59,118 nucleotides of DNA from Candidatus Eiseniibacteriota bacterium (GCA_031431875.1 JANPEF010000049.1:1-59118), one strand, 5' to 3'. Positions 6,117 through 32,276 are shown, counted from the first letter of the stretch. A program made the numbers and translations. The notes: a model not told the origin generated them from the sequence alone.

Positions 6117-6908
6117 TTATCGATAGTGCGCCTTCACACCGCCCCAGCTCTTCGGCAACGCAGCCACGACACCCGTCTTGAACGACGGAACGCACAGCCA
6201 CTTGTCCTCGACCAGCTGGATGGACCAGAACCCGAACTGGTCCTGGGTGACGACCTGTCGCGGCTGCGACGGCGGCGTCTTCGTGATGTCGTAGCAGACC
6301 AGGTGCGCCTCGGGATCGAGGATCGGATACTGCCCGGTCGGATCCTGCTTCTCGACGGGATTGCAGAACCAGCGGGCCGAGTCGACGAAAGCGTGATTGA
6401 AGCCGAACTGGTCCTCGAGCGTGACGATGCGCCCCGGCCCCGGCGCGATCGCCGCGTAGCACTTGTAGTGGTTGCGCGGCGGGATCACCTGCCCGGGCAC
6501 GGGGAACTTGAGGCTCGGCGCGAGCAGGAAGCGCGCGGAGCCCACCCGCAGTTGCTGCTCGGGGCCAAACTGGTTGGTGGCGAAGACGAGGGCCGAGAAC
6601 GGCTGGGAATCGATGCGCCACCAGTCGTAGTGCAGGATCGGGTCGAACATCGGGTAGCCGTCCTTCGACACCGGTGTCGCGAAGTACGGGAACTCACGCA
6701 CCAGATGCGTGGCGATCCCGAACTGGTCGCGCAGGACCACGGGCACCTGGTGCACCGGCGGCGGCAGCACCGCGTAGATCTTGTAGTGATCGATGCCCGG
6801 GGGGCCACCCGAGCCCTGGGCGTGGGCCGGGACGACGGAGGCGAGGAAGCACAGTGCGGAGAGCAGCGCGATGTGCGCGCCGCGGGAGACCTGTGTGCGA
6901 GATGGCAT
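6117..6908 (-). CDS. Secreted protein with duplicated DHYK(C)Y...DQFG modules (DUF7450-like) and SWG-x-VK C-terminal tail
   Basis: GGAG then ATG at 6908. Signal peptide ends VPAHA-Q. Two units: DHYKIY..DQFG..PVSK..LHY..NQFG and NHYKCY..DQFG..FCNPVEK..HLVCY..DQFG..LCVPSFK. Ends VAALPKSWGGVKAHYR. Confidence 0.75.
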   Translation of the reverse strand: MPSRTQVSRGAHIALLSALCFLASVVPAHAQGSGGPPGIDHYKIYAVLPPPVHQVPVVLRDQFGIATHLVREFPYFATPVSKDGYPMFDPILHYDWWRIDSQPFSALVFATNQFGPEQQLRVGSARFLLAPSLKFPVPGQVIPPRNHYKCYAAIAPGPGRIVTLEDQFGFNHAFVDSARWFCNPVEKQDPTGQYPILDPEAHLVCYDITKTPPSQPRQVVTQDQFGFWSIQLVEDKWLCVPSFKTGVVAALPKSWGGVKAHYR

Positions 6909-7124
6909 GACGGAACTCCGGAGTGGAGGTCGGTCCGTGCCGCGTCCGACGGTTTCCGGCGACGTGGAGAGGCGACCCCGCGCGCGGCGGGGATTCGGGA
7001 CGTCTCTGGGACGGGATGCGGATGGAGGATGCGGGTCCCGGGAACCGCTGAGAACAATGCGCCGATTCCCCGCGCCGTCCAACCCAATTTCGGCGCGTCG
7101 GCAAGACCTTGCCGGGCAGCAGCT

Positions 7125-8591
7125 TCAAGCCACGGGCACGCCCCCCGTCAGCCACGCGAGGACGTCGAGCGCCGAGTAGTGGTCGCGCCCGGCCAGGAAC
7201 CCGCCGAGGATCTTGAGGTCGTCTCCGCTGGTCACCAGCGGTGGCTCGACCGCCCCGTCGGCGCGCACCTGCGGGTGCCCCACGGTGGCGACCAGCGTGT
7301 TGCACAGGCAGCGCCGGCCCGCGGTCTCCTCGGCCGCGCCGCCCTTCCACACGAACAGGTCCTCCGGTTCGCTGGCACAGCGGAAGCCGACGCGTCCCTC
7401 GGGCGTCACGTAGGTCACGCGCAGGTAGCCGAGGTCACACACGCGCTCGCGCTCGACGCCCTGCGCCGGATCCTCGGGCCACTTGACGATCTTGAACGGG
7501 TAGCCGGTCGGCGACGCCTCGGCATCGGTGAAGACGTCGACCTCGTCGCGCGCAACGGCGGCGAGCACGGAGCGCTTGATCGCGGGCGCCATGCCCGACT
7601 CGTCGCTGAACGCGAACAGCGTTCCCACCTGGATCCCGGCCGCGCCCTGGGCGAGCGCCTCGCGCAGGCGATCGGGGTGGCCCGCCCCGCCGGCGAGCCA
7701 GAACGGCAGGCCGAGTTCGCGCATCTTCGCCAGGTCGACCTCGTCGCGCGGGCCGTAGACCGGCTCGCCGCGGTCGTTGCGCGGCGCCTCGGTCCGCGGC
7801 GGCGCATTGTGGCCGCCCGCGGTCGGACCCTCGATGACGAACCCGTCGACTTGCCCGGTCGCCTTCTTCGCCAGCACGGTGGCGAGCGAGTGGCTGGCGA
7901 CGATCGGCAGGAAGCGTGGTCGCGTCAGCGATTCCGGCGCGGCGCCCAGGTGATCGGCGGGATCGAAGCGCAGGAGTTCGAGGCCGGCGGGCGCTTCCCC
8001 TTCGATCTCGAGCTTGAGCGTCGCGGGCCGGTGCCCGGCGAGGGCATCGAGCACGCCCGGGATCTCGCGCGGGATGCCCGCGCCCATGAGGATGAAGTCG
8101 ACGCCCGCGAGCATGGCGCCGTAGAGCAGCGGCAGGTTCGCCAGTTGCACCTTGGTCAGCAGGTTCATGCCGACGACGCCGGCGTGGCCTTCCTTCGCCA
8201 GCCAGACCTCGACGAACGCAGCGAGCATCGACATCCGCTGGCGGGCGAGATCGAGCGGCAGGCGCAGGAGCGGCAGCAGCCGATACGGCGTGCCCGGCGG
8301 CAGGCCGCCCTCGACGAAGAACCTGGCGAGCACCTCGCTGGCCACGCCCGGCACGGGGAAGTGCGTCATGGCGCGACGGAGGTGTCCGCCCTCGTCACCG
8401 TCCTGCAGCCGCCGCACGACGATGGTCTCGAGACCGGTCCCCGAGACGACGCCGAGTTGCCCGGCGCGGGAGACGGTCCGGGCGAGGCGCCAGCCGGAGA
8501 CACCGATCCCCATGCCTCCCTGGATGATGCGAGGAAGCGAAGGAGTGGCGTGGTCGGCACGGGAATCTGGGGTGGGGATTTCAGGCGGCAT
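7125..8591 (-). CDS. Nitronate monooxygenase-like FMN oxidoreductase
   Basis: IIQGGMGIGVS, MGAGIP, EGPTAGGHNAPPR, AGIQVGTLFAF, ASPTGYPFK, and a C-terminal Cys cluster CDLGYL..C..CLCN. Confidence 0.88.
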   Translation of the reverse strand: MPPEIPTPDSRADHATPSLPRIIQGGMGIGVSGWRLARTVSRAGQLGVVSGTGLETIVVRRLQDGDEGGHLRRAMTHFPVPGVASEVLARFFVEGGLPPGTPYRLLPLLRLPLDLARQRMSMLAAFVEVWLAKEGHAGVVGMNLLTKVQLANLPLLYGAMLAGVDFILMGAGIPREIPGVLDALAGHRPATLKLEIEGEAPAGLELLRFDPADHLGAAPESLTRPRFLPIVASHSLATVLAKKATGQVDGFVIEGPTAGGHNAPPRTEAPRNDRGEPVYGPRDEVDLAKMRELGLPFWLAGGAGHPDRLREALAQGAAGIQVGTLFAFSDESGMAPAIKRSVLAAVARDEVDVFTDAEASPTGYPFKIVKWPEDPAQGVERERVCDLGYLRVTYVTPEGRVGFRCASEPEDLFVWKGGAAEETAGRRCLCNTLVATVGHPQVRADGAVEPPLVTSGDDLKILGGFLAGRDHYSALDVLAWLTGGVPVA

Positions 8592-8656
8592 GGCAGATCT
8601 CTCCCGTTTCGACGGGGTCTGGATCCGCGTGCCGCGTTCGGGGGAACGAGCTGAAG

Positions 8657-9832
8657 CTATCCCACTTGCCGGGGCCCGGGCAAGCCCGGCGTCGGCGAGT
8701 CCGCGCCGGCCGCCTGCGGGTACGTCCCGAGCACGCGCAGGTCCCGCACGCGCGGCCCGAGGTCGGCCAGCGCCGCTGCCACCGCCGCCGAGGCGGCATG
8801 CCCCTCGAGATCGAGGTGAAAGCGATAGCGGAACGGCTCGCCGGGCACGGGCCGCGACTCGAGCTTCGTCAGGTTCACGCCGTGCGCGGCCAGGGTGGTC
8901 AGCGCCTCGCCGAGCGCGCCGGGCCGGTGGTCGAGCGTCACCAGCAGCGAGGTCTTGCACAGCGCGTCCGCGGCGCACGCCACCGGATCGCGGGCGAGCT
9001 CGAGGAAGCGCGTGAAGTTCCCCTCCTGCGACTGGATGCCGCGCGCCAGAACGTCGAGGCCGTAGGCCCGTGCCGCCGCCGCCGAGGCGATCGCGCCGAC
9101 CGTGCGGTCGCCGCCCTCCCGCACCTTGCGTGCCGCGCCGGCGGTGTCGAAGTCGGCCTCGGCGCGCACGTCGGGCAGGCCGCGCAGGAACGGCGCGCAC
9201 TGCGCCAGGGCCTGCGGGTGCGAACGCACGACGCGCAGTTCGTCGAGACGCACGCCCGGCAACGCCAGCAGGCAGTGCGCGACGTGGCTCACCACCTCGG
9301 CGGTGATCACGAGGCCGCCGTCGGCGAGCAGGTCGTAGACCTCGTGCACGCTGCCGGCGGTCGTGTTCTCGATCGGCAGCAGCGCGCGATCCGCCGCGCC
9401 CGAGACGACGGCGTGCGCCGCGGCGGCGAACGACTCGTGCCCCGCGAGCAGCGCGCCGCCCTCGCGTCCACCGTAGCGGGCCTGCGCCGCCAGGTGGCTG
9501 TACGAGCCCTCGACTCCCTGGTAGGCCACGCGCAATGGCGCACTCGCGTGTGCGGCGACCCACGCCTGCTGGTGGGCGATCGACATGGCCATGATGCGGC
9601 GGTACAGGTCCTCGACGGCGTGGGCGTCGATCCCCTGCTCGCTCGCGAGCGCACGCACGCGGCGGATGACCTGTTCCTCGCGGGCGGGATCGCGGAAGGG
9701 CGCGGCGGCGTCGAGCTTCCACTGCGACACGCGTTCGACCAGGTCCATGCGCTCGCCCAGCAGGGCGATCAAGCGCGCGTCGAGCCCCTCGATCGCCTCG
9801 CGAATCGCCTGGATGTCGTCGGGACCGCTCAA
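8657..9832 (-). CDS. pheA: Bifunctional chorismate mutase / prephenate dehydratase
   Basis: AroQ-type N-terminus (IREAIEGLD..L..R..K..DPARE), PDT motifs VAYQGVEGSYS, LPIENTTAG, SHPQALAQC, NFTRF, and ACT motif NLTKLESRP. TTG start overlaps the NCS1 stop (TTGA). Confidence 0.92.
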   Translation of the reverse strand: MSGPDDIQAIREAIEGLDARLIALLGERMDLVERVSQWKLDAAAPFRDPAREEQVIRRVRALASEQGIDAHAVEDLYRRIMAMSIAHQQAWVAAHASAPLRVAYQGVEGSYSHLAAQARYGGREGGALLAGHESFAAAAHAVVSGAADRALLPIENTTAGSVHEVYDLLADGGLVITAEVVSHVAHCLLALPGVRLDELRVVRSHPQALAQCAPFLRGLPDVRAEADFDTAGAARKVREGGDRTVGAIASAAAARAYGLDVLARGIQSQEGNFTRFLELARDPVACAADALCKTSLLVTLDHRPGALGEALTTLAAHGVNLTKLESRPVPGEPFRYRFHLDLEGHAASAAVAAALADLGPRVRDLRVLGTYPQAAGADSPTPGLPGPRQVG

Positions 9833-11286
9833 CGCCGCCCGCGCATCAGCGCCAGGTAGACAGCACCGGCGAGCCCGAAGCCGACGAACCACGCGTAGGC
9901 GTAGAGGCCCGTCCACAGCGCCCCGACCCCGCCGAATCGCGCCGGGAACGCCTGCGCGAGGAAGCCCGGGACGTTGGGCACGATGCCGGCCGCGAGCGCG
10001 ATCAACGCCGCCGGGTTGAATCCCTGCGCGTACTCGTAGCGCCCACCGCGGCGGTACAGGTCCCCGAGGTCGAGCGTCCGGCGGCGCAGCACGAAGTAGT
10101 CGGCGATCAGGATGCCACCGATCGGGCCGAGCAGCGCCGAGTAGCCGACGAGCCAGGTGAAGATGTAGCCCTGCGAACTCTTGAGCAGGTTCCACGGCAT
10201 GATCAGCACGCCGATGACCGCCGTGATGATGCCGCCGGTGCGGTACGAGATCCGCCGCGGCGCGAGGTTCGAGAAATCGTTCGCCGGCGAAACCACGTTT
10301 GCCGCCAGGTTCGTCGTCAGCGTCGCGACGGTGAGCGCGATCATCGACACGATCACCGCGACGGGTCCGCCGATCTTCGCCAGCAGCACGACCGGGTCCC
10401 AGATCACGCCGCCGCCCGGGAAGATGACCGCCGTCGCCGAGGTCACCGCCACGCCGATGAACGCGTACAGCGTCATCGTCGTCGGCAGCCCCGCCGCCTG
10501 CCCCACGATCTGGTCGCGCTGGCTCCTGGCGTAGCGCGTGAAGTCGGGGATGTTGAGCGACAACGTCGCCCAGTAGCCGATCATCGCCGTCAGCGCCGGG
10601 AAGAAGATGGGGAGGAAGGCAGCCGTCGTCGGAAACTTCGATGGCTGCGCCAGCATCGGCCCGAAGCCGCCGGCGCGCAGGTACGCCCAGCCCAGCAGCA
10701 CGAGCCCCATGATGATGAGGAACGGCGCCGCGATCGACTCGAGCCCCTTGATCGACTCGGTCCCGTGCCAGATGAAGTGCAGGTTCATGAGCCAGAACAA
10801 CAGGAACGCAAGGAACTCCCCGGTCCCCAGCCCGACCCAGCCGGGAAGGATGGCCGGCAGCGTCGCCACCGCGGGCCACAGCGCCTTGGTCAGCTGAAAA
10901 ATCGCCGCACCGCCGATCCACGTCTGGATCCCGAACCAGCCACAGGCCACGAGCGCGCGCAGCAGCGCGGGCACGTTGGCGCCCAGCACGCCGAACGAGG
11001 CGCGGGCGAACACCGGGAACGGGATGCCGTACTTGGCGCCGGCGTGCGCGTTGAGCAGCATGGGCAGCAGCACGATCGAGTTGCCGAGGAAGATCGTGAA
11101 CATCGCCTGCTTCCACGACATCCCCGAGTCGATCAGGCCCGAGGCCAGCGTGTAGGTCGTGATGCACACCGACATGCCGATCCACAGCGCGCAGTAGTGC
11201 CACCAGTTCCAGGTGCGCGCCGAGGCGGGGACGGGGGCAATGTCGGCATTGATCAGCGACGGGTCGCTTCCCTCGATCGCGCTCAT
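9829..11286 (-). CDS. NCS1 family nucleobase:cation symporter
   Basis: RTWNWW..LWIGM, GAKYGIPFPVFARASFG, WATLSLNIPDFTRY, NLAANVVSPANDF. About 12 hydrophobic segments. ATGA overlap with preA. Confidence 0.95.
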   Translation of the reverse strand: MSAIEGSDPSLINADIAPVPASARTWNWWHYCALWIGMSVCITTYTLASGLIDSGMSWKQAMFTIFLGNSIVLLPMLLNAHAGAKYGIPFPVFARASFGVLGANVPALLRALVACGWFGIQTWIGGAAIFQLTKALWPAVATLPAILPGWVGLGTGEFLAFLLFWLMNLHFIWHGTESIKGLESIAAPFLIIMGLVLLGWAYLRAGGFGPMLAQPSKFPTTAAFLPIFFPALTAMIGYWATLSLNIPDFTRYARSQRDQIVGQAAGLPTTMTLYAFIGVAVTSATAVIFPGGGVIWDPVVLLAKIGGPVAVIVSMIALTVATLTTNLAANVVSPANDFSNLAPRRISYRTGGIITAVIGVLIMPWNLLKSSQGYIFTWLVGYSALLGPIGGILIADYFVLRRRTLDLGDLYRRGGRYEYAQGFNPAALIALAAGIVPNVPGFLAQAFPARFGGVGALWTGLYAYAWFVGFGLAGAVYLALMRGRR

Positions 11287-12620
11287 CGGTCGTGCAGGCC
11301 GCCGGGGACGTGCGCGGTTCCCTTGGCGATGCGGTCGTTCCACGACTCGAACGGCCGATCGCCGGTCACGTCCTTCATGGTGATGCAGCCGTCGACGGGG
11401 CAGACATGCGAGCACAGGTTGCAGCCGATGCACTCGGTCTCGTCCACCCACACGATGTGGGTCTTGCGCTCGGCGCTCCCGGCGATCGCCGCGTCGCGTG
11501 TCGGGGCGAGGTGGCCCGCGGCCAGCGGATCGTCCGCGTTGTGGATGCAGTGCACGGCGGTGTCGCGGCAGGCGACGTAGCACAGGTTACAGCCCACGCA
11601 CTTGTCGGCGTCGACGTGGGCGACCACCTTGTAGTTGAGGTCGAGGTCGCCCCACTCGACGTAGGCCGGCAGCGCCTTCCCGCGCAGCTCGTTCACCGAC
11701 TTCATGCCCTTGCCGTCGAGGTAGGCCGACAGCCCGTCGATCATGTCCTCGACGATGCGGAAGCCGTAGTGCATCGCCGCCGTGCAGACCTGCACCGAGG
11801 TGGACCCCAGGGCGATGAACTCGGCCGCGTCGCGCCACGTGGCGATCCCGCCGATGCCCGAGATCGGGATCGTGATCCGTGGATCGCGCCCCAGGGCGGC
11901 GACCATGTGCAGCGCGATCGGCTTGACCGCCGGGCCGCAGTAGCCGCCGTTGGTCGAGCGCATGCCGACGACCGGGTACGGCACCAGCTTGTCGAGGTCG
12001 ACGCCGACGATGCTCTTGATCGTGTTGATGAGCGACAGCCCGTGCGCGCCGGCCTCGACCGCGGCGGCGCCGGGCTCGGTGACATCGCCGATGTTCGGCG
12101 TCAGCTTGATCAGCACCGGGATGCTCGAGAACTCGACGGCCCAGCCGGCGACGACCTTGAGCACCTCGGGCTCCTGCCCCACCGCCGAGCCCATGCCGCG
12201 CTCGCACATGCCGTGCGGGCAGCCGAAGTTGAGCTCGAGCCCGTCGCAACCGGTGTCGATCGTGCGCTTGATGATCTCCTTCCAGTCGTCCTTCGACTCG
12301 ACCATGAGCGAGGCGATCAGCGCGCGATCCGGGTAGCGCCGCTTCACTTCCTTGATCTCGCGCAGGTTGGTCTCGAGCGGCCGGTCGGTGATCAGCTCGA
12401 TGTTGTTGAAGCCCGCCATCTTCATGCCGCCCAGCGCGACCGCACCGAAGCGACTGGAGGTGTCGACGATGGGCTCGCCCAGCGTCTTCCACACCGCGCC
12501 GCCCCAGCCGGCGTCGAAGGCACGCATCACCTGCTCGCCCGTGTTCGTCGGCGGCGCCGAGGCGAGCCAGAACGGGTTCGGGGACTTGATCCCCGCGAAG
12601 TCGATCGACAGGTCCGCCAC
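11283..12620 (-). CDS. preA: NAD-dependent dihydropyrimidine dehydrogenase subunit PreA
   Basis: SPNPFWLASAPPT, NNIELITDR, ELNFGCPHGMCERGMG, KLTPN, plus two C-terminal CxxCxxCxxxC ferredoxin motifs. GTG start at 12620. Confidence 0.95.
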   Translation of the reverse strand: MADLSIDFAGIKSPNPFWLASAPPTNTGEQVMRAFDAGWGGAVWKTLGEPIVDTSSRFGAVALGGMKMAGFNNIELITDRPLETNLREIKEVKRRYPDRALIASLMVESKDDWKEIIKRTIDTGCDGLELNFGCPHGMCERGMGSAVGQEPEVLKVVAGWAVEFSSIPVLIKLTPNIGDVTEPGAAAVEAGAHGLSLINTIKSIVGVDLDKLVPYPVVGMRSTNGGYCGPAVKPIALHMVAALGRDPRITIPISGIGGIATWRDAAEFIALGSTSVQVCTAAMHYGFRIVEDMIDGLSAYLDGKGMKSVNELRGKALPAYVEWGDLDLNYKVVAHVDADKCVGCNLCYVACRDTAVHCIHNADDPLAAGHLAPTRDAAIAGSAERKTHIVWVDETECIGCNLCSHVCPVDGCITMKDVTGDRPFESWNDRIAKGTAHVPGGLHDR

Positions 12621-12789
12621 GCTGCGTACCCCCTTCTGGATCCGTTGCCCGGTCTGCCGAGGGTCGTTCGTTCCGTGGCGGACCGATGATTCGGTGAATC
12701 GCAAACTATTATGTGTTATGTACTTACGACAGCACGTCCGGAATACCAGTCAGATCCCGGTAAGTCCACTGGTTCTGGGACGAGTCGTT

Positions 12790-14109
12790 TTACACGTGCC
12801 CGGCCATCATCGGCGCATCCGGGTCGACGGTCAGGCCGCACGCTGCGGCGATCGCACGCGCCGCGCGCTTCCCATCCTGGACGGCGGTCACCACGAGTTC
12901 GCCGACGCCGGTGCTGTCGCCGCCGGCGTAGACGCGTGGGTTCCCGGTGCGGCCCGTCGCCGGATCGGCGACGATGCCACCCTTCGGATCGCACTTCACG
13001 CCGTCGAACCCGGCCACCACGGCGGCGTCGGGCTTCGCCTGGCCGATCGCCACGAGGACGAGGTCCGCCTCGAGCTTCCGGCCGTCGGCCAGCACCAGCG
13101 CCGTGAGCGAGCCCTCGGCACCGCGCATGAACATCTCGGGGACCGCGCGCTCGACCAGCCGCACGCCCTCCTCGCGCGCGTGCAGCAGTTCGTGGGCGTA
13201 GCCGGACATGTCGGCCTCGGTGCGCCGGTAGGCGAGGCTCACGTCGGGCACGCCCAGGTGCGCCAGTTCGCGCACGGCGTCGATCGCGGTGTTGCCGCCG
13301 CCGATCACGACCGCCCGCCTGACGGCGCCCAGCGCGAAGCCGGGCTCGTTCTTCAGGCGCTCGATCCACGCGGTCGCACCGCTCACGCCCGGGCCGTCCT
13401 CGCCGCGGATGCCCAGCTTCGCGTCGCCGCCCAGGCCCACGCCGAGGAACACGGCGTCGAAATCGTCCAGGAGCTGCGCTCCCGTCAAGTCCCGCCCGAC
13501 CTCGACGCCGGTGCGGATCGTCACGCCCAGCTCGCGCACCAGGTCCACCTCGCGCAGCGAGCCGTCGACATGCATCTTGTATGGTGCCACGCCGGTCGTG
13601 TTGAGCCCCCCGGGCATCGCGCGCTTTTCGAACACGGTGACCGCAACGCCTTCGAGCGCGAGATAGCCCGCGCACGCCAGCGAGGCCGGCCCCGCGCCCA
13701 CGCAGGCGACCTTCTTCCCGTTCGCGGGCATGCGGCGCAGCAGCGTCGCCGCGTCGCCGCGCTCGAATGCGGCCTCGACGGCGTAGCGCTGCAGCCGGCC
13801 GATCGCGATCGTCTCGTGGCCCTGGTGCTGGTGGACGCATGCGCCCGCGCAGAGGACCTCGACCGGGCAGACGCGCGCGCACGAGTAGCCGAGCAGGTTC
13901 GCCGACAGGATTGTGCGCGCGGAGCCCTTCAGGTTATCGGTCGCGATCTTCCTGATGAAGCCCGGGATGTCGATCCCCGTCGGGCACGCCGTGATGCACG
14001 GCGCGTCGTAGCAGTAGAGGCAGCGGTTCGCCTCGGCCACGGCCTGGCCCGGCGTGTACGTGGGCTTGAGGTCGGGAAGCGCGTGCTCCAGCCGATCGTC
14101 GTGGGCCAC
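12790..14109 (-). CDS. preT: Dihydropyrimidine dehydrogenase subunit PreT (GltD-like flavoprotein)
   Basis: EANRCLYCYDAPC..ACP, CARVCP..LC..AC, VGAGPAS, VIGGGNTAID, YAGGD. Adjacent to preA. Confidence 0.92.
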   Translation of the reverse strand: MAHDDRLEHALPDLKPTYTPGQAVAEANRCLYCYDAPCITACPTGIDIPGFIRKIATDNLKGSARTILSANLLGYSCARVCPVEVLCAGACVHQHQGHETIAIGRLQRYAVEAAFERGDAATLLRRMPANGKKVACVGAGPASLACAGYLALEGVAVTVFEKRAMPGGLNTTGVAPYKMHVDGSLREVDLVRELGVTIRTGVEVGRDLTGAQLLDDFDAVFLGVGLGGDAKLGIRGEDGPGVSGATAWIERLKNEPGFALGAVRRAVVIGGGNTAIDAVRELAHLGVPDVSLAYRRTEADMSGYAHELLHAREEGVRLVERAVPEMFMRGAEGSLTALVLADGRKLEADLVLVAIGQAKPDAAVVAGFDGVKCDPKGGIVADPATGRTGNPRVYAGGDSTGVGELVVTAVQDGKRAARAIAAACGLTVDPDAPMMAGHV

Positions 14110-14113
14110 GTGC

Positions 14114-15439
14114 CTACGCCGCCTCGATCGCGGCGAGTCCCTCGCCGAGAATGCGCACCGCCTCGGTGACGTCTGCCTCGGAGGCGATGAGCGGAGGCGA
14201 GATGCGTGCCACGTTGCCGTACAGACCGCCCTTGCCGATCAGGAGCCCGCGCGCCTTCGTCTCCTCGAACAGGCGGGCCAACGCCTGCGGATTGGGCGTG
14301 CGGTCCTGCTTCGTCTCGTCCATCACGAACTCGACGCCGAGCATGAGCCCCAGCCCGCGCACGTCGCCGATGATCCTCGGGTACTTGCGCTTGAGCCCGT
14401 CGAGACCTTCGCGCAGCGCCTTGCCCACCTTCGTCGCGTTCTGGCGCAGCCCGTGTTTCTCGATGTAGTCGATCGTCGCGTTGCCCGCGGTGGCCGAGAT
14501 CGGGTTGCCGCCGAAGGTCGAGATGGTCAACGTCTTGAGCGAGTCGGCGATCGGGGTCGTGCACACGGTGGCCGACAGGGGCAGCCCGTTGGCGATGCCC
14601 TTGGCCATGGTCATGATGTCGGGCTCGACGTCCCAGTGCTCGATCCCCCACCACGAATCGCCGGTGCGGCCGAAGCCGGTCTGCACCTCGTCGCAGATGA
14701 ACACGCCGCCGTACTTGCGCACGATATCGGTGGCGATCTTGAAGTACTCCCTGGGCGGCGTGACGAACCCGCCCACTCCCTGGATCGGCTCGGCCAGGAA
14801 CGCGGCGACCTTCCCGGTCGTCGTCGTCAGGATCAGGTCCTCGATGTCCTGCGCGCATTTCACGCCGCAGCTCGGGTAGGTGAGCCCGAACGGGCAGCGG
14901 TAGCAGTAGGGCGCAGCCGCGTGCTTGATGCCGGCGATCTGCGTCGGTACCGCGCGCCACGTCGAGTGCGCGGTCAGTGACTGCGCCAGCATCGAGCGGC
15001 CCGAGTAGCCGTGGCGCAGGGCGATGATCTCCTGCCGGCCCGTGTAGACCTGCGCCATCATCACCGCGGTCTCGTCGGCTTCCGTACCCGACGCGGTGAA
15101 GTAGCACTTGTCGAGCGCGCCCGGCGTGATCGACGCCAGCTTCTCGGCCAGCTCGACGATGGGCAGCGTGGGGTACAGCGTCGAGACGTGGCCCAGGCGG
15201 TCGATCTGCGCCTTGACCGCGTTGTTCACGTCGTCGTTGCAGTGACCCACGGAGACGGTGAGGATGCCGCCGAAGAAGTCGAGGTACGACTTCCCGTCCA
15301 TGTCGGTGACGCGCATGCCCTTGCCCGAGGCGAGGACGATCGGCTCCGCGTAGTAGTTGGTGCAGGCCGGGAACAGGTGCTTCTTGTGCGCGGCCCGGAT
15401 GTCCGCCGCGCTGCGTGTCGCCTCGGTCTTCGCGCTCAT
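14114..15439 (-). CDS. Class III PLP aminotransferase (AGXT2-like; likely beta-alanine/3-aminoisobutyrate aminotransferase)
   Basis: YLDFFGGILTVSVGH, AEPIQGVGG, DEVQTGFGRTG, MAKGIANG. Located in the pyrimidine catabolic operon. Confidence 0.9.
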   Translation of the reverse strand: MSAKTEATRSAADIRAAHKKHLFPACTNYYAEPIVLASGKGMRVTDMDGKSYLDFFGGILTVSVGHCNDDVNNAVKAQIDRLGHVSTLYPTLPIVELAEKLASITPGALDKCYFTASGTEADETAVMMAQVYTGRQEIIALRHGYSGRSMLAQSLTAHSTWRAVPTQIAGIKHAAAPYCYRCPFGLTYPSCGVKCAQDIEDLILTTTTGKVAAFLAEPIQGVGGFVTPPREYFKIATDIVRKYGGVFICDEVQTGFGRTGDSWWGIEHWDVEPDIMTMAKGIANGLPLSATVCTTPIADSLKTLTISTFGGNPISATAGNATIDYIEKHGLRQNATKVGKALREGLDGLKRKYPRIIGDVRGLGLMLGVEFVMDETKQDRTPNPQALARLFEETKARGLLIGKGGLYGNVARISPPLIASEADVTEAVRILGEGLAAIEAA

Positions 15440-16872: not shown

Positions 16873-16904
16873 GGCGATTCTCTCCCGGGTCCGAAGAACT
16901 GCGG

Positions 16905-17771: not shown

Positions 17772-17813
17772 CGAGCGTTCTCCCGCGGTGAAAGGAACGT
17801 GCCGACTGCGGAT

Positions 17814-20892: not shown

Positions 20893-20920
20893 TTCGTGTG
20901 CTGCCTGCAATGCAGCGACG

Positions 20921-22867
20921 TCAGTCGATGACGACGACCGGCTTCGCCACCGACTTGCCATCCTGATACAGGCGCAGGAAGTACGTTCCCGCCGGCAGCG
21001 AACGATCGCCGCCCAGGTTGACCGCGTGCCGACCCGGACCGTAGCCCGACAGGTCGGCCGAACGCAGCACGCGACCGGCGACGTTCACCAGGTCGAGGCG
21101 CGCGCGCGCGACACCCGGCAGGGTGAAGGCGACGTTCATGTTGCGGCCGACGGCCGGATTCGGCTGGGCACCCTCGAGCGCCAGCTGCATCGCGGCATCC
21201 GGCGTCGAGACCCACACGATCTCCGACGTCGTCGTCTCGCCATTGCCCCGGCCGATCACGCGATAGCCGTAGTCCGTGCCGGGCGTGACGGTCGGATCCT
21301 CGAGGATGAGCACGCTGCGGCCCATCAGCGTGGGCTCTGCGATCGTCGTCCACTGGTCGTCACCCGTGGTCCGCTCGGCCGACCACGACAGCTCCGACGC
21401 GCCCGCCGCAAACCACTCGATGCGCACGCCCTCGCTGCCGACGTTGATGTAGCCCGGCGCGATCGCAATCGACGTCGCCGCATCGAGCCAGCCGATGTCC
21501 GCGAAGTGATTGAGCGTGATGTCGACGGTCGACGACAGGTTGCCGTTGATCGCCGGCTCCATGAGGACGTTGGGCTGCAGCGCCGTATCCCAGTGCGAGA
21601 CCGACGAGCCGCCCTGGAACGGATTCGGCGTGTTCATGCGCACGCGACCGCCGGCATCGAGTCCGGCGAGCGAGCCCGGATCGATCGTCAGCGACACGTT
21701 GAGGCCGACCAGGTTGGCCTTGAGCAGGTTGCCGTTGGGCAGCGTGATGCGGACCGACGGGATCGTGATCGTCGGGTCGGCGCCGCCGAGTCCGGCCGGC
21801 GGGCAGCCCGCCGCGTTGTCGGCGATGATGACGCCGATGGCGCCGGCGTTCTGCGCGTTCTTCACCTTGATCACGAAGCCGCAGAAACCCCGGTCGATGA
21901 GCGCGATCTTGCCCGCGAGCGCCGCCGCATTGACCGGCGGAGCCTCGCAACCGTCGTTGATCGGGGCCACGGCATCCTCGTAGAGAACGACGTCACCCGT
22001 CACCGTGCCGGCCGAGATCGACGGGCCGAACGAAGCGGCGCCGATGTCGTAGTCCCCGACGGCGGGCGCCGGGGCGTGGACGCGGAGCAGCGACTTCGGT
22101 CCCATCGTGACGCTGGCGCCGGCCATCGCGCTCGTGCCGTCCCACGCCAGCTTGCCGCAGCTGATTGCCGAGGCGACACGCTGCGCGGCGGTCATGGTGT
22201 CCCAGTGACCGCCGCTGATGTTGTCGTACAGGAACTTGTCGAAGATGCTCGGCAAGCCCGTGTTGAAGTTTCCGGTCGTGCCATTCGTCGTCGTGCTGAA
22301 GCCGAGCCCGTGTCCGAGTTCGTGGAGCACGACCGGCAACAGCTCGGTCGCGGTTCCTTCGTTGCCATCGAGCCCGTAGTACCAGGTGAACCCGCAGCCC
22401 GGCAGGCCGAGGTTCGAGTTGAACGTCGCATTGATGTCGTTCAGCGCCGGGTCGAGGTCCGCGAACGTCAGGCGGTTGGCGAGCGCGACGTGGTACCAGA
22501 AGTTGTTGAACGGAGCTCCCGGGAAGTTGACCCAGATTTGCGTCGGGCCGGCGCTGCCGAGGACGGCGCTGGTCGCGGTGCAGGTCTGCGGATTGAACAC
22601 GGCGTTGACGCGGATCTCGACCGTGCTCGGAAGGAGCGCGCCCCAGATGTTCGCCGCGTGCTGGAACACCGCCAGGCGCTGCTGGCCGATGGTCACGCCG
22701 GGGTTGCCACCGACCGGCGCGGCCGGCGTGACGTCGTTGAAGCCTTCACCGACGCCGTCGTTGTTGACGATGGTGATCGTGGCGGCCTGGGCGCTCGCGG
22801 CGGCGAGGATGCCCGCGCAGGCCAGGACGGCCGAGAGGTTGCGGAAGCGAACGAGCTCGGGGCGCAT
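20921..22867 (-). CDS. Secreted HExxH zinc metalloprotease with inserted PA domain and FlgD/T9SS-like C-terminal domain
   Basis: Signal peptide ending AQA. HELGHGLG. PA domain GKIALIDRGFCGFVIKVKNAQNAGAIGVII. SSVSHWD..LMEP. C-terminal PNP..FTLP..LDLVNVAGR..LPAGTYFLRL. Confidence 0.87.
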   Translation of the reverse strand: MRPELVRFRNLSAVLACAGILAAASAQAATITIVNNDGVGEGFNDVTPAAPVGGNPGVTIGQQRLAVFQHAANIWGALLPSTVEIRVNAVFNPQTCTATSAVLGSAGPTQIWVNFPGAPFNNFWYHVALANRLTFADLDPALNDINATFNSNLGLPGCGFTWYYGLDGNEGTATELLPVVLHELGHGLGFSTTTNGTTGNFNTGLPSIFDKFLYDNISGGHWDTMTAAQRVASAISCGKLAWDGTSAMAGASVTMGPKSLLRVHAPAPAVGDYDIGAASFGPSISAGTVTGDVVLYEDAVAPINDGCEAPPVNAAALAGKIALIDRGFCGFVIKVKNAQNAGAIGVIIADNAAGCPPAGLGGADPTITIPSVRITLPNGNLLKANLVGLNVSLTIDPGSLAGLDAGGRVRMNTPNPFQGGSSVSHWDTALQPNVLMEPAINGNLSSTVDITLNHFADIGWLDAATSIAIAPGYINVGSEGVRIEWFAAGASELSWSAERTTGDDQWTTIAEPTLMGRSVLILEDPTVTPGTDYGYRVIGRGNGETTTSEIVWVSTPDAAMQLALEGAQPNPAVGRNMNVAFTLPGVARARLDLVNVAGRVLRSADLSGYGPGRHAVNLGGDRSLPAGTYFLRLYQDGKSVAKPVVVID

Positions 22868-22869
22868 GG

Positions 22870-23537: not shown

Positions 23538-23565
23538 AGAGTAGTCATCCCCGTGCAGGTGTCAA
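23538..23565 (-). promoter_or_regulatory. Candidate sigma70 promoter for the two-gene protease unit
   Basis: Minus strand TTGACA-N16-TACTCT. Confidence 0.5.
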
Positions 23566-23604
23566 GAAAGAATGAAGTTGGACGGGATCCCCGGCGCCAA
23601 TGCC

Positions 23605-25989
23605 TCAGCGAACGAGGAGTTCGGCGCCGCACACGACGGTGTTCCCGCGCGTCCGAAACGTGGCGCGCGCGAAGTACAGCCCCGGCGCGAGGCCGCCGCT
23701 CCAACTGCCGGACCGCGCGACTGCGACGTGGTACTGCCCGCCGGGCAAGTCGGCGGCGTGCAGGAGCGTCCGGACCCGGCGACCGGTCACGCTGAAGAGG
23801 TCGACCTGGACACGCCCCGCCTCGGGCAGGGCGAGGACGAACGCCGGAGATCTTCCTCCGAGCGGGGTCAGCGCGAAGTCGGCCGGTGTGTCGTTCCATT
23901 GCGGAACAGAGACCGGCTTGGGTACGAGGAGCACCACCGTCGAGTCGGTGTAATCCAGCGCGAGTCCGGAGGTCCCCGTCGTGTCGCCCTCGAGGACGAG
24001 CGACTCGAACACCCCGGTGCGCGTTCCGGCCGTCAGCAGCGGGAGTTCCGCCCCCGCGGGCAGGTTGAGCCCCGGCGCGATGCGCAGCCGCAGCTTGCCG
24101 CCACAGGTCAGCGCGCCCGCAACCACGACGCGATCGAACTCGCCTCCCAGGGCGCCCGCGACGTCGAGGAGGAGCTCGCTCGTCGTGCCGAGGTCGCCCC
24201 CGCCGGCCAGGAACAGATCGCTCGCCGCATCTTCTCCGACGTCGAGGACCCCGTCGTTCTCGAAGTGCGCCGCGACGAGCGTGCCCCGACCTGCAAGCAC
24301 GGCGGCCGCCGGGTTCGACAGCGTGTCGGCGACCTCGAGCGTGCCACCCTCGAGGCGCGTCGAGTCGCCGAGCGCGATGTCCGCGGCGGCAAGCAGCCGC
24401 ACGTGATGCGCGCCCACCTCGAGGGTGCCCGCGAACGCATAGCCGGCCGGATCGGCCGCCACACCCAGGTCGAGGTCGGCGAGCGCCGCGATCGTCGTTC
24501 CCGCGGAGTCGCCCGCGATCGGCACGGCAAGCACACCCCGCGCTTCGAGGCGGCCGGCCGCCGCGAAACGCATGCGGCTCGCGACGAGCGTTCCCCCGTC
24601 GAGCCGCAGGCGACCGCGCAACTCGAGCGAGTCGGTGAGCGCGAGAGTCGCTTCGTTCGTGACCGTCGCCGCGGCCTCCGCACCCAGGAACAACGGGCCC
24701 TGCACGCTGAGCGTCGCGCTCGAGTCGGCGTCGATCGCGGCTACGCCATCGGTCGCCACCAGCGCTCCGCCGACCGTGAGGTGCGCCCCCGACGCGAGGA
24801 CGAGCGCCGCGGTGTCCGCCGCCGTTCCCACGAGCGTCAGCGGTCCGGCGACCGTCCCCACCGCGCCACGGATCAACTCGAGTGCACCGCGCCCGGATCC
24901 GACCGACGCGCCGAGGACGAGAGGATCGGGCAGGTCGAGCGTGCCGCCGTCGACCCTGAGCGTGCCGCCGGTGAGCGCGAGCGATCCGCTCCCCGGGATC
25001 ACCGCGAGCGTCTGCGTGTGCACGGTGCCGCCCTGGACCAGCAGGCTGCCCGAGCCGCCGTGCGCATCGCCGACCTGCAGGCGCGCGGCGCAGCGAAACT
25101 CGCCGCCGGCACCGGCCGATGCGATCCCGTCCCCCGCGGCCGCGGTCGTGAGGTTCGCACCGATGTAGAGGTTGCCGTCGCTCGTCACGCGCGAGACGGG
25201 GCCGCCGGAACCGGCTTCGAGCGTGCCGAACGCGCCGCTCAGGTAGCCGACGTAGATCGCGCTGCGCGCCTGGGCGCGGCCGCCCGCGAGGATGCTGAGC
25301 CGCCCGCTGCCCTGTTCCCCCACGAAGAGGTCGCCGGTCACGCCGGTCGTCTGCAGCAGCGATGCGACCGTGTCGGCGACGCCGCTCACCGTGATGCCGC
25401 CGTCGGATCCGGCGTCGTCGCCGATGAACACGTCGTCGGTCACCTTCACCGCCGCGCCGTCGAGCGCCTGCAGGTCACCCACGCCACGGCTGCCGACGCG
25501 AAGGTCCTGTCCGGCGCCGGTCACCTGGAACTGCGAGCCCGCGCCGCGCACGACCAGCGATCCCGTGCTGCCGGCGACGGCGCCGAGCTGCGACGTCGAT
25601 CCGGCCGCGAGCGCGCCGACGACCTCGAGCGCCGCGACGTCCAGGTTCGTGGTCGCGATCTGCAGCACGCCGGCGATCGTGTGCGGCGAGGTGGCCAGCA
25701 GGGACACGCTGCCGCGGCGATAGGTCTGGGTGGCCGACTGCAGCGTCGTGTTGCCCGCGGTCACGCCGTAGGTTGCGTTGAGGTTGAACACCAGCGCGTC
25801 GATCGAGGTCGGCGCCTGGGCCGGCGCCCAATTGGCCGGCGTCGCGTAGGCGCCACCGGCGGGGTTGGCCCAGTTGAGCGTGGCAGTGTACGCCGCAGGC
25901 GCGCCTTGAAAGGCGCCGCCGACAACGAGGGCCAACGCCAGTAGGCAGCGAGAAACGCAGCGCGGGAATGCGGCCAATGTGGGCTCCAC
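23605..25989 (-). CDS. Secreted Gly-rich beta-helix protein (T5SS/PEP-CTERM-associated-type repeats) with FlgD/T9SS-like C-terminal domain
   Basis: Signal peptide, W....GG....ANW cap, repeats VG..G.G.L....G..V.....IG...G..G, FDRVVVAGAL..GG.L, and C-terminal FVLALP..VDLFSVTGRRVRTL..LAPGLYFAR. Start uncertain. Confidence 0.75.
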   Translation of the reverse strand: MEPTLAAFPRCVSRCLLALALVVGGAFQGAPAAYTATLNWANPAGGAYATPANWAPAQAPTSIDALVFNLNATYGVTAGNTTLQSATQTYRRGSVSLLATSPHTIAGVLQIATTNLDVAALEVVGALAAGSTSQLGAVAGSTGSLVVRGAGSQFQVTGAGQDLRVGSRGVGDLQALDGAAVKVTDDVFIGDDAGSDGGITVSGVADTVASLLQTTGVTGDLFVGEQGSGRLSILAGGRAQARSAIYVGYLSGAFGTLEAGSGGPVSRVTSDGNLYIGANLTTAAAGDGIASAGAGGEFRCAARLQVGDAHGGSGSLLVQGGTVHTQTLAVIPGSGSLALTGGTLRVDGGTLDLPDPLVLGASVGSGRGALELIRGAVGTVAGPLTLVGTAADTAALVLASGAHLTVGGALVATDGVAAIDADSSATLSVQGPLFLGAEAAATVTNEATLALTDSLELRGRLRLDGGTLVASRMRFAAAGRLEARGVLAVPIAGDSAGTTIAALADLDLGVAADPAGYAFAGTLEVGAHHVRLLAAADIALGDSTRLEGGTLEVADTLSNPAAAVLAGRGTLVAAHFENDGVLDVGEDAASDLFLAGGGDLGTTSELLLDVAGALGGEFDRVVVAGALTCGGKLRLRIAPGLNLPAGAELPLLTAGTRTGVFESLVLEGDTTGTSGLALDYTDSTVVLLVPKPVSVPQWNDTPADFALTPLGGRSPAFVLALPEAGRVQVDLFSVTGRRVRTLLHAADLPGGQYHVAVARSGSWSGGLAPGLYFARATFRTRGNTVVCGAELLVR

Positions 25990-26036
25990 GAGGCTGGAAT
26001 CTCGAAGGATCGAATCGACGATAGGGAGGGGCGAGT

Positions 26037-27958: not shown

Positions 27959-28043
27959 GGGGTACGACCTCCGCGATCGGGGGCTGGGGCAGGAAGACGG
28001 CGACGCGCCGGGCCCGCGTGGACCGCGTCAGGGTACCACAGGG

Positions 28044-29342: not shown

Positions 29343-29354
29343 GCGCGTCGTGCC

Positions 29355-29885: not shown

Positions 29886-30139
29886 GTCGTCTCCGGGTGG
29901 ACGCAAGGCGCACCGGAAAGTCCCGGTGGCCAACGAATTCGATTGCCGAAGCGTGGATTCTTCCGCTATCCTTACGGCCTTGATGTGAACGGTGCCTGTT
30001 CCCCTGCGGGCACATCCATTCGGACGCCCGGATCGTAACGCTTTCGGCCCGCCCGGCCTTGATTCGATTCGAAGTCCTGACCGATCTGCCTTACTCGACG
30101 TGCGTGTCGATGCAGTCCTTACATTCAGCGGGAGCCCCG

Positions 30140-31048
30140 ATGAAGCCGGCGATCATTCGTGTCACCTCCTTCCTGTTCACTTTCGTGATCCTTCTCGCCG
30201 GTCCGGCTGCAGCCGTCGATGCGCCGGTCGTCACCGTCCTGCTGTCGAAGCCCGGCTCCGTGCGCCTCATGGTGAGTGCGGGCGCCAGTGGCGCGCCGGC
30301 CGGTTTCACCATCGACCGCATGAGCCAGGGCGATTACGATGCATTCGGCGGGTGGGCCACCTCGATCGCCACCAGCCGGGTCATGAGCTCGTTCGAGGGT
30401 CGGCCGACTTTCAACATCGAGGGTACCGCCGACGACTACCGCCTCGCTGCTGGCGAAGGTATCGAAGTCGAGCTCGGCCAGCTGTTCGACGAGACGGGCG
30501 TCGGCGCGACCGACTACGAGGAGCTGGATGCCTCGACCTCGTACGTCTTCCGCATCCGCGCCAACAACCTGTCCGGCGGCCAGCCCAGCCCCTACACCGA
30601 GACGATGTCGGTGACGAGCGCCGGCCTGGCGCAGAACTGCACCTACACGCAGGGCTACTGGAAGAACCACACCGAGGTGTGGCCGACCGGCAGCCTGATG
30701 ATCGGCACCGTCAACTACAGCGCCGCACAGCTGTTGGCGATCTTCCAGCAGCCGGCCCAGGGCAACAAGCTGACGATCCTGGCGCACCAGTTGATCGCGG
30801 CGAAGCTGAACCTGGCGAACGGCGCGAACCCGGTCTCGATCGCGGCGACGATTGCGGCGGCCGAGGCCCTGATCGGCGGCCTGGTCATCGCTCCGATCGG
30901 CAACGGCTCCCTGCCGACCAACCCCGCGACCGGCTACGCCAACACCCTGGATGACTTCAACAATGGCCTGATCGGCCCGGGACACTGCGGCTCGGTCCCG
31001 GCGACGGCCTCGACCTGGGGCACGGTCAAGGCGATCTACCACCACTAG
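30140..31048 (+). CDS. Secreted protein (FN3-like domain + TQGYWKNH helical domain + TWG-x-VK tail), paralog 1
   Basis: GGAG then ATG at 30140. Signal peptide. L.ASTSYVFRIRA is FN3-like. CTYTQGYWKNH..LAHQLIAAKLN..LDDFNNG..GHC. Ends VPATASTWGTVKAIYHH. Confidence 0.8.
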   Translation: MKPAIIRVTSFLFTFVILLAGPAAAVDAPVVTVLLSKPGSVRLMVSAGASGAPAGFTIDRMSQGDYDAFGGWATSIATSRVMSSFEGRPTFNIEGTADDYRLAAGEGIEVELGQLFDETGVGATDYEELDASTSYVFRIRANNLSGGQPSPYTETMSVTSAGLAQNCTYTQGYWKNHTEVWPTGSLMIGTVNYSAAQLLAIFQQPAQGNKLTILAHQLIAAKLNLANGANPVSIAATIAAAEALIGGLVIAPIGNGSLPTNPATGYANTLDDFNNGLIGPGHCGSVPATASTWGTVKAIYHH

Positions 31049-31072
31049 GCCTCGGGCTCGTACAGCCGCCCG

Positions 31073-31108
31073 AACGGGGGCGGGGGGACGCACCCCCCCG
31101 CCCCCGTT
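31073..31108 (+). terminator. Intrinsic terminator
   Basis: 15-bp perfect stem AACGGGGGCGGGGGG / CCCCCCGCCCCCGTT followed by TCGTTT. Confidence 0.8.
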
Positions 31109-31358
31109 TCGTTTCCCCGGACAAATTGTCCCTTTACTTCCTGTTTCAATCTGCGATAGTTTCTCCCAACCGAAATCAGGGCGTTCGATCTCCCCATCGG
31201 ACGGCGGGTCGGTACATCGATTTTGTCGAACTCCAGGATTCGTCCGCTGTCCCTGATTCCGTCCGGAATCGCCGCCCCCGGCGATTCGCAGTTGCCTGGT
31301 TGTTGGTTGATTGTGCGTTGAGAACGCAGGATTTCGACCCCCCTTAAGGAGAGACTCC

Positions 31359-32276
31359 ATGAAGCTGAATCGCGTACGCATGTTGGTTGCAGCCGCCGTC
31401 GGACTGTTCGTCGCCGCCGGACCGGTCGCCGCCCAGACCCTCGACGCTCCGCTGGTCAACGCGATGCAGAGCAAGCCGAGCTCGGTCCGCCTCATGGTCA
31501 TTGCCGGCGCGAGCGGTGCTCCGTCCGGCTTCGAGGTGCAGTGGATCACGAAGGCCGAGTTCGACCTGCTCGGCGGCTTCCCCGCCGACGGCGTCGCCTC
31601 GACGCTGGTCGAGGGCACGTTCACCGGCGCCCCGACGTTCAACACCGAGGGCACCGCCAACTCCTACATCCTGGGACCCGCCGAGGGCATCGAGGTCGAG
31701 CTCGGTCAGCTGTTCGACGAGACCGGCGTTTTGGCCGACGACACGGACGAGCTCACGCCGGGCACGCAGTACGTCGTGCGCGTGCGCACCCAGGGCGCCG
31801 GCGCCGGTTCGCCGAGCGACTTCACCGACGCGATGATCGTCAACAGCTCGCCGCTGGCGGCTAATTGCACGTACACGCAGGGCTTCTGGAAAAACCACTT
31901 CGAGGTGTGGCCGGTGACCAGCCTCACGCTCGGCACCGTCAACTACACCGCGGCCGAGTTGCTGGCGATCTTCAACCAGCCCGCCGGGGGCAACAAGCTG
32001 ATCATCCTCGCGCACCAGCTGATCGCGGCGAAGCTGAACCTCGCCAACGGCGCCGATCCCAGCGCTGCGGCCGCGACGATCGCGGCGGCGGATGCGATCA
32101 TCGGTGCGCTGGTCGTCCCGCCCATCGGCGGCGACAACCTGCCGAACAGCCCGGCGGTCGGCTACGCGAACCTGCTCGACGACTTCAACAACGGCCTGAT
32201 CGGCCCGGGCCACTGCGGCACGGTGCCGGCCTCGGCCGCGACATGGGGCCAGGTGAAGTCGCTTTACCGCCAGTAA
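31359..32276 (+). CDS. Secreted protein, tandem paralog 2 of 30140..31048
   Basis: AAGGAG then ATG at 31359. Colinear with paralog 1 (SVRLMV.AGASGAP.GF, EGIEVELGQLFDETGV, CTYTQG.WKNH). Ends VPASAATWGQVKSLYRQ. Confidence 0.82.
   Translation: MKLNRVRMLVAAAVGLFVAAGPVAAQTLDAPLVNAMQSKPSSVRLMVIAGASGAPSGFEVQWITKAEFDLLGGFPADGVASTLVEGTFTGAPTFNTEGTANSYILGPAEGIEVELGQLFDETGVLADDTDELTPGTQYVVRVRTQGAGAGSPSDFTDAMIVNSSPLAANCTYTQGFWKNHFEVWPVTSLTLGTVNYTAAELLAIFNQPAGGNKLIILAHQLIAAKLNLANGADPSAAAATIAAADAIIGALVVPPIGGDNLPNSPAVGYANLLDDFNNGLIGPGHCGTVPASAATWGQVKSLYRQ

Follow-up and report, generated by a model that had tools for sequence, protein, structure and literature searches.

A short terminal TWG tail on small exported proteins of Eisenbacteria and other phyla: a candidate sorting or docking signal

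Three genes in a 59,118-nucleotide stretch of DNA from a Candidatus Eiseniibacteriota bacterium (the window, meaning the whole stretch that was analysed) encode proteins that end in a tail with the consensus P-[TV]-P-A-x-x-x-[TS]-W-G-x-[VIL]-K-x-x-Y-R, 16-17 residues long and here called the TWG tail. The tail is genuine and widespread, no description of it was found in the sources searched, and we regard it as a C-terminal sorting or docking signal. It consists of two elements, a P-[TV]-[PA]-[AV] linker and a short, loosely attached predicted helix of the form [TS]WGx[VIL]Kxx[YF]R. As to its function, we propose, with evenly poised confidence and from sequence comparison, that the tail is a miniature sorting signal which dispenses with a C-terminal domain (CTD), would direct small exported proteins into a route of SprA, PorV and PorU resembling a type IX secretion system (T9SS), and would be cut by PorU. 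The basis in hand is the terminal position of the tail, its modularity, the lack of overlap with CTDs in the source genome, the small cargo, the register of the linker and the co-occurrence with SprA, PorU and PorV.

A terminal motif on unrelated passengers

The source genome (3.75 Mb, 98% complete) contains 3,143 called genes and is 90% coding. When all six frames were searched for [ST]WGx[VILM]Kxx[YFW] without requiring a stop codon, there were 65 matches, of which 63 lie within two residues of a stop and 64 within five. The original prediction had called for a proteome scan combined with a count of signal peptides. Of the called genes, 61 have the motif at their end and none has it inside, and a crude signal-peptide heuristic (not SignalP) is passed by 54 of 62 tail proteins, as against 111/164 proteins with a CTD and 796/2,917 others. 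The eight tail proteins that fail look mostly like fragments or miscalled starts, and none of the 62 has a lipobox. A position matrix added one degenerate gene and four uncalled open reading frames (ORFs), which brings the total to about 66 tail proteins and the tail genes to about 2% of this genome's proteins; the called genes score 29.9-56.6, the degenerate gene 16.6 and the best internal site 10.5. The terminal placing of the motif is far beyond chance. According to the original prediction, the idea of a sorting signal would fall if the motif were confined to these few proteins, occurred as often internally or on cytoplasmic proteins, formed part of the preceding fold or belonged to a characterised family; none of this was the case.

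W and G are invariant in 65/65 aligned tails (the degenerate tail left out), K is almost never replaced and no W-to-F/L variants occur. Searches of the 3,143 genes with W, G, K or Y masked in the profile recovered no variant tails, which argues for stereospecific docking. The last residues vary (R, RR, RN, HH or bare K-x), and this bears on the idea of a tag for turnover or folding in the periplasm, which a C-terminal protease or a chaperone would read. A usually free C-terminus and the presence of SurA-like genes beside a second PorU-like gene would suit such a tag, but the variable end, the existence of internal copies and a cargo of typical surface domains make it hardly probable at all.

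The tails of the window were checked and lie where the original prediction had placed them, each directly at the stop codon. Tail protein 1 (6117..6908, minus strand; 263 residues) combines a signal peptide with DUF7450 repeats (PF24247, E 3.4e-31) and ends, at 6117..6167 on the minus strand, in VAALPKSWGGVKAHYR*, where a V-A-A linker is followed by SWGGVKAHYR. Tail protein 2 (30140..31048, plus strand; 302 residues) has a signal peptide and, by similarity to protein 3, an Fn3-like and a helical domain; its tail, VPATASTWGTVKAIYHH* (30995..31048, plus strand), consists of a V-P-A linker and TWGTVKAIYHH. Tail protein 3 (31359..32276, plus strand; 305 residues) has a signal peptide, an Fn3-like beta-sandwich (Fn3 matches at E about 3e-4) and a helical domain, and closes with VPASAATWGQVKSLYRQ* (32223..32276, plus strand), a V-P-A linker and TWGQVKSLYRQ, for which a flexible linker and a helix are predicted. 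The signal peptides claimed for all three find their counterpart in signal-peptide-like segments at the start of each gene, and protein 1, compared without the last 18 residues, is indeed unrelated to the other two (best E 0.45 and 0.46). The latter, proteins 2 and 3, form a paralogous pair with 61% identity over 287 residues (tails removed), so the window holds two independent passengers and not three. Distant DUF7450 homologues of protein 1 (P0158-P0162) end right where the domain ends and carry no tail, and whole protein 2 matched unnamed clusters only in the ESM Atlas.

Across the source genome, the 62 passengers fall into 48 BLAST groups, and most belong to no family (Pfam matches in 16 of 63 scanned). 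The domains that could be named are choice-of-anchor L and E, DNRLRE, ScyF-like NHL, LTD, CHRD, DUF4394, CBM, beta-helix and PD40. Together with the signal-peptide count and the lack of a catalogued match, this diversity bears out the claim of a modular tail on unrelated exported proteins. Tails and whole proteins gave no family match for the tail in Pfam or NCBIfam. The PDB sequences returned five matches (E 0.04-0.36), and the three alignments shown are repeats that match the linker alone; a 24-residue tail query gave no usable match in the ESM Atlas. A description of the tail was not found in the literature searched, which comprised mainly titles and the starts of abstracts, most subscription papers and supplements being outside its scope.

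AlphaFold models were obtained for protein 3 (106-row alignment) and for an unrelated tail protein from Zixibacteria (10-row alignment). The former has a mean predicted local distance difference test (pLDDT) score of 90 and a helix at W271-R279 of the model with pLDDT 57-58; the domain of the latter is near pLDDT 90. In both models the tail is a loop followed by a helix of 9-10 residues (pLDDT 57-61), placed by the model outside the passenger fold. The suggestion of an amphipathic helix stands in part: a helix is predicted, at low confidence, but the mean hydrophobic moment of 0.38 is unremarkable against other C-termini (median 0.30, 90th percentile 0.57). The hydrophobic residues fall at W, +3 and +6/+7, with +6 mostly polar in this genome.

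Such a helix could, by analogy with MinD and FtsA, bind lipid or lipopolysaccharide directly and need no protein reader. MinD and FtsA are cytoplasmic proteins with short basic C-terminal membrane-targeting helices that tolerate hydrophobic swaps, and the tail is likewise short, basic, C-terminal and furnished with spaced hydrophobic residues. Its net charge of +1 to +5 in 61/62 tails fits this idea, a genome can retain just one tail gene, and tandem copies would add avidity. In contrast to MinD and FtsA, the tail has fixed W, G and K residues and a modest moment, and it stands on proteins with predicted export; in addition, the lack of W-to-F/L variants, the near-constant K, the polar +6 and the frequent lack of Y/F in tails of the Poribacteria type speak against a lipid ligand. 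Fixed W, G and K residues together with a modest hydrophobic moment argue for a protein reader, and direct lipid binding seems quite improbable.

Cargo, linker and known C-terminal signals

In the source genome, 164 proteins carry a terminal FlgD/T9SS-like CTD, as detected with a profile built from 98 PF13860 hits, and none of the 62 tail proteins carries both tail and CTD. A tail ahead of a CTD was likewise seen in 0/95 motif matches from a metagenome sample and in 0/6 within 400 kb (7%) of one poribacterial chromosome, small samples that do not refute such an arrangement. Cargo size differs strongly between the two groups: among proteins with a signal peptide, the median is 243.5 residues for tail proteins (n=54, maximum 492) versus 604 residues for CTD proteins (n=111; p=1e-16), CTD cargo being counted as protein length minus 85 residues. 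For 4/62 passengers, a homologous domain is present in one of this genome's CTD-bearing proteins, and one of these pairs consists of adjacent genes.

Both groups share features of the linker. The pattern [TV][PAGDS][VA] stands directly before the CTD in 96/150 proteins, compared with 38-41/150 in five other segments of the same proteins, and a de novo matrix from 139 CTD linkers reads x-x-[VT]-[GDAS]-V. When this matrix was placed at 36 offsets, the tails scored best at a single offset in 27/62 cases in the source genome and in 45/135 outside it, whereas local shuffles of the own tails reached at most 9 at any offset. The shared register sets P-[TV]/[PA]-[AV] of the tails against P-T/G-I, the PorU cleavage consensus that the available passages of a study of Prevotella intermedia report as measured (PMC11969387). 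In 25 tails of the Poribacteria type, a linker of the form [LTFS]-[APS]-V-[DEK]-P lies five residues further upstream of W, with V in 22/25 at a position unused in the selection. Since the linker is kept at two different spacings from W, linker and helix behave as two elements. The common register, and the presence of the tail in the sorting-signal slot of choice-of-anchor passengers, agree with the proposal that the tail is used in parallel with the CTD. A Cys residue occurs just ahead of the linker in 27/62 own tails and 86/136 outside tails, and the Cys content is 1.9% in tail proteins versus 0.7% in CTD proteins; this suggests a disulphide that may close the domain right at the linker.

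How does the tail compare with signals that are already catalogued? Among the closest is the T9SS type A CTD (TIGR04183/PF18962; FlgD-like PF13860 here), which is also C-terminal, present in many copies on many folds with a signal peptide, preceded by a flexible P-T/x-hydrophobic linker and accompanied by SprA, PorV and PorU in the same genomes. In contrast to this domain of 3-7 beta-strands, the tail has about 16 residues, is a predicted helix and matches no CTD model. It lacks the type A motifs B and D (GxY); its K-x-x-Y-R, absent in most Poribacteria-type tails, resembles motif E only loosely. A Pro residue commonly follows the proposed cut, the cargo is small and tandem copies exist. In the parts of the literature available to us, the type A CTD is carried by PorV and cut by PorU, its shortest natural forms being three-stranded domains of 43-55 residues in Prevotella intermedia (PMC11969387), and the minimal engineered signal has 22 residues and two strands (PMC11969387; PMC4804311).

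The type B signal (TIGR04131, with a PorP/SprF partner) and the type C signal (ChiA) are domains of about 100 residues or more, as far as the consulted part of one account describes them (PMC10202324). They offer a precedent for several signal classes at one translocon and for an uncleaved class that is handled by a partner barrel (PMC10202324, same part). Type B cargo genes cluster with the gene of their partner. Tail genes, in contrast, showed no partner gene next to them, and none of the PorV clades follows the tail. With LPXTG/sortase, PEP-CTERM/exosortase, GlyGly-CTERM/rhombosortase and MYXO-CTERM/myxosortase, the tail has in common that it is short, terminal, multi-copy and equipped with a signature motif and a basic end, and ScyF-like NHL and choice-of-anchor domains are passengers of PEP-CTERM as well. 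These tripartite signals, which include MYXO-CTERM/myxosortase in the portion consulted of bioRxiv 10.1101/2023.06.07.544157, carry a transmembrane segment after the motif, and the tail does so in 0/62 cases: the highest 19-residue hydropathy in the last 40 residues is 1.55, and none exceeds 1.6, as the original prediction had it. Its further statement that the tail fits none of LPXTG, PEP-CTERM, GlyGly-CTERM and T9SS CTD was sustained by transmembrane, fold and motif tests, all of which the tail failed.

Four proteins of the window itself carry a T9SS-like CTD and no tail, and they served for comparison. A Val-containing linker before the CTD had been noticed in three of the four and is present as V-[GSA]-V: V-G-V in an 831-residue secreted protein (35945..38440, plus strand; FlgD/T9SS-like CTD, PF13860, E 3.8e-11), V-A-V in a 479-residue secreted protein (53198..54637, minus strand) and V-S-V in a protein of about 776 residues with an uncertain start (23605..25935, minus strand). 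The fourth, a 648-residue secreted protein (20921..22867, minus strand), has V-S-T instead. Elsewhere in the window, at 9829-19277 on the minus strand, a gene run judged by eye resembles a reductive pyrimidine-degradation operon, with transporter, dehydrogenase subunit, aminotransferase, dihydropyrimidinase, nitrilase-family and aldehyde dehydrogenase genes.

Distribution of the tail and its candidate readers

With a genome DNA pattern that misses TAG stops, the tail was detected in 113/121 genomes of this phylum, which its relatives identify as Eisenbacteria, and a reversed-pattern control gave 2 matches in all; one family of the phylum has 0-3 matches per genome. Where relatives of protein 3 have a name, it is Eisenbacteria, and its homologues keep the tail in 118 of the 120 listed, the other two looking truncated. 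The tail is also present in 60/61 genomes of a Krumholzibacteriota sample. A scan of GTDB contigs yielded at least 126 tail loci, 80 of them with titles; among the matches listed, the named loci are mostly from Eisenbacteria, with others from Krumholzibacteriota, Latescibacterota, Poribacteria and Zixibacteria. A profile of 65 tails retrieved 978 clusters (50% identity) at E<=0.001 among the 1.84 billion searched. Of the best 150 of these 978 clusters, 145 end within 5 residues past the motif, 3 are extended by 11-31 residues and 2 are repeat artefacts.

Several genomes with titles from other groups were considered as carriers outside the T9SS phyla. G256, titled Limnocylindria and with 35 pattern matches, is Eisenbacteria-like, its best matches to the source genome being up to 87% identical, and contains CTD proteins and a PorV. 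G166, titled Fibrobacteraceae, falls into the Krumholzibacteriota sample, and G259, titled Verrucomicrobiia and with 31 tail matches, has SprA. G257 and G258, also titled outside the T9SS phyla, have 1-2 tail matches. Such titles of tail-rich genomes (Limnocylindria, Verrucomicrobiia, Fibrobacteraceae) can distort distribution surveys. G256 also contains, at L445 about 9028-9085 on the minus strand and directly after a tail gene, an 18-codon ORF that is nearly all tail, with a GAGGAG-like ribosome site ahead of it and no signal peptide; it may be either a micro-gene or what is left of a duplication.

Poribacteria-type tails keep T-W-G-x-[IL]-K and often end 1-4 residues after K without Y/F, so the core common to all tails is [TS]WGx[VIL]K. 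In Zixibacteria, 14/41 genomes have one pattern match, and in 12 of these it is the same conserved secreted protein, a single-copy all-beta protein of about 140 residues that lies 3' of rex in 9/10 loci read. Its tail reads TWGKIKALF[KR], and TWGKIKALF is invariant while overall identity falls to 34-39%. The protein exceeds the cut-off of no Pfam family and has no orthologue in the source genome. By eye, anti-sigma-factor-antagonist-like and anti-sigma-kinase-like genes follow the tail gene in some of the loci.

The source genome encodes SprA (441 bits, cut-off 200) and PorU (552 bits, NCBIfam cut-off 420), the latter with a PorV-family gene directly after it. A second PorU-like gene is likewise of full length, there is a third C25 protein, and the PorV family counts nine genes; both full PorU-like proteins have His and Cys motifs at the catalytic positions, as judged from the alignment. 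A search limited to GldM and GldN gave no match, but the control genomes gave none either; the genome possibly holds a T9SS without the usual motor and ring. Exosortase (PF09721), the one enzyme of the tripartite signals that was searched for, has 0 matches in this 98% complete genome, one control genome being positive, and regular expressions found no PEP-CTERM-like or LPXTG-like tails in it. SprA occurs in 117/121 genomes of the phylum and in 5/5 genomes to which tail loci had led (Poribacteria, Krumholzibacteriota, Latescibacterota, Zixibacteria and one untitled), the poribacterial SprA being below the cut-off in a 2,232-residue frame. PorU-like genes are present in 31/31 Poribacteria (all below the cut-off) and in 41/41 Zixibacteria, with two full-length copies in the source genome and about three in Poribacteria. 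An early single-cell study of Poribacteria, in the part seen, reports the CTD and no structural genes (PMC3909097).

The original prediction had favoured a dedicated machine, a claim not supported so far: those Zixibacteria that have one tail gene also have just one PorU, and none of the PorV clades follows the tail, which points to a shared reader. A second PorU as the dedicated enzyme was rejected as a requirement on the grounds that each of the 41 Zixibacteria has one PorU match, with or without the tail. A dedicated PorV was set aside as well, from a tree of 115 PorV-family sequences of 11 genomes, including three Zixibacteria without the tail family, in which no clade followed the tail; this was a fast tree with weak deep support, from which matches with <150 aligned residues were dropped. 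Two of its clades, the one adjacent to PorU and a PorV2-like one, are near-universal, also in these three Zixibacteria. In the Zixibacteria loci, where neighbours were read, tail genes showed no recurring machinery gene next to them, even at 1-5 tail genes per genome.

A dedicated protease or exporter unrelated to T9SS could still be imagined as the reader. No catalogued signal matches the tail, its patchy presence in Zixibacteria (12/41) could follow an unseen gene, and the route is atypical anyway, GldM and GldN having no match in the source genome or in the controls. Against this stand the lack of recurring neighbour machinery, the linker that ties the tail to the CTD pathway and the improbability of a whole machine for one cargo gene, and we consider such a reader very unlikely. 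That one cargo gene alone is retained in a genome with a standard T9SS core suggests that the reader is shared or that the ligand is not a protein.

Some loci of the PorU and PorV families have features of their own. In Zixibacteria L319, L325, L326, L328 and L330, the PorU-adjacent PorV is split after about residue 40 (5/5 examined) by an in-frame insertion of roughly 500-700 residues, which gives open frames of 863-1,070 residues. The second PorU-like gene of the source genome (L050, G000:C23:1624-12468) is divergent from SurA-like peptidyl-prolyl isomerase genes, and in 14/16 loci (L405-L426) a match to the N-terminal part of its product adjoins a homologue of this isomerase. An internal TSWARLKPAYR in the SurA-like protein was considered as a mimic of the tail and set aside as chance, W alone being kept in most of 16 homologues. 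Four modules (L051-L054) consist of a TonB-dependent receptor, a large CTD protein of the V-P-N-P-Y subtype and a private PorV-family barrel, in one case with an NHL lipoprotein in between. At L060:100-1287, a 396-residue probable lipoprotein is weakly similar to SprA model positions 390-548, and G123 has a similar short frame.

Proposed route and its meaning

In the proposed route, Sec would carry the tail protein to the periplasm, where the W/G/K face of the helix would dock stereospecifically on a shared component of the pathway, namely a general PorV-family barrel, SprA or PorU, or alternatively on a CTD-bearing carrier. PorU would then cut at P-[TV]/[PA]-[AV], freeing a basic peptide of about 15-16 residues, and would attach the cargo to a surface glycan or release it. 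The docking, translocation, cleavage and attachment steps are all inferred.

A number of observations weigh against this route, and all support for export, cleavage or binding is correlative. Four tail-positive drafts that are 88-94% complete (G117, G114, G060 and G064) have no SprA match, nor do G257 (2 matches) and the draft G256 (35 matches), where incompleteness is the likely cause. The co-occurrence of tail and SprA has little power because SprA is near-universal in these phyla, and the PorV tree offers no partner clade. The tail is a shorter predicted helix, whereas the T9SS signals known so far require beta-strands and a length of at least 22 residues. Pro follows the proposed cut in 47/62 own tails, and the residues tolerated after the PorU cut in the passages available are G, S and A as well as R, K, H, D and N, with Pro not among them (PMC11969387). 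The mean linker score is -2.1 for tails versus +8.0 for CTD sites, and the best offset of the Poribacteria-type tails is split, 7/25 in register versus 9/25 two residues further on. Because PorU cleavage is described as sequence-independent in the part seen of PMC4804311, the shared linker is only suggestive. Finally, lipoprotein P0402 has four tandem tail copies, which a cleaved terminal signal would not need, and lipoprotein P0407 has an internal and a terminal copy. Tails on lipoproteins were also seen at L094:1331-3031; in this group (P0402, P0407 and L094), one member has a weak match to DUF4440 (NTF2-like), and one has a tail copy after each of two repeated domains.

Tandem and internal copies would be easier to understand if the tail were an uncleaved docking peptide, a minimal counterpart of dockerin that holds its passenger non-covalently on a scaffold, an S-layer or an outer-membrane protein. 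Small binding proteins could thereby be gathered at one place of the envelope, and with a CTD-bearing scaffold they might hitch-hike uncut through the T9SS. Dockerin, a small and sometimes repeated module at the C-terminus of various secreted proteins, binds cohesin through paired calcium-binding loop-helix repeats. The tail, in contrast, shows no calcium-binding loops in the alignment, has about a quarter of the size and matches no Pfam family. Besides the copies on P0402 and P0407 and the lipoproteins of L094, the invariance of W and G, the Pro after the proposed cut, the flexible linker and short helix predicted in two unrelated folds, and a Zixibacteria tail that is more conserved than its passenger are consistent with docking. 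However, docking leaves the register of the CTD-cleavage linker and its upkeep at two spacings unexplained, few clusters have tandem or internal copies (2 of the best 150), and a BLAST self-comparison of CTD proteins of at least 400 residues, a crude test, gave no repeated-domain scaffold. On the sequence data, an uncleaved docking peptide is the main rival reading, possible although unlikely.

The proposed sorting signal cut by PorU can be placed in a wider scheme, which we put forward more tentatively and as somewhat on the improbable side. A stripped-down T9SS, with SprA, many PorV and PorU and no recognisable PorKLMN motor, would serve two signal classes according to the size of the cargo: large proteins would bear the folded CTD and small ones the 16-residue linker plus TWG helix. 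Its hosts would be Eisenbacteria, Krumholzibacteriota, Latescibacterota, Poribacteria and some Zixibacteria.

With at least 978 clusters, most of them without a family name, the tail points to a large envelope proteome that is still unannotated across several uncultured phyla. The Zixibacteria are a direct test bed, with one conserved cargo gene in 12/41 genomes and one PorU each. If the tail feeds a T9SS-like route, a type IX signal could be a short helix instead of beta-strands, it would become visible how the translocon works in lineages without detected motor genes, and a very small tag for surface display would be available. If the scheme of two signal classes is true as well, no type IX signal shorter than the tail would be known, and a peptide alone would serve as the address for passage across, and coupling to, the outer membrane.

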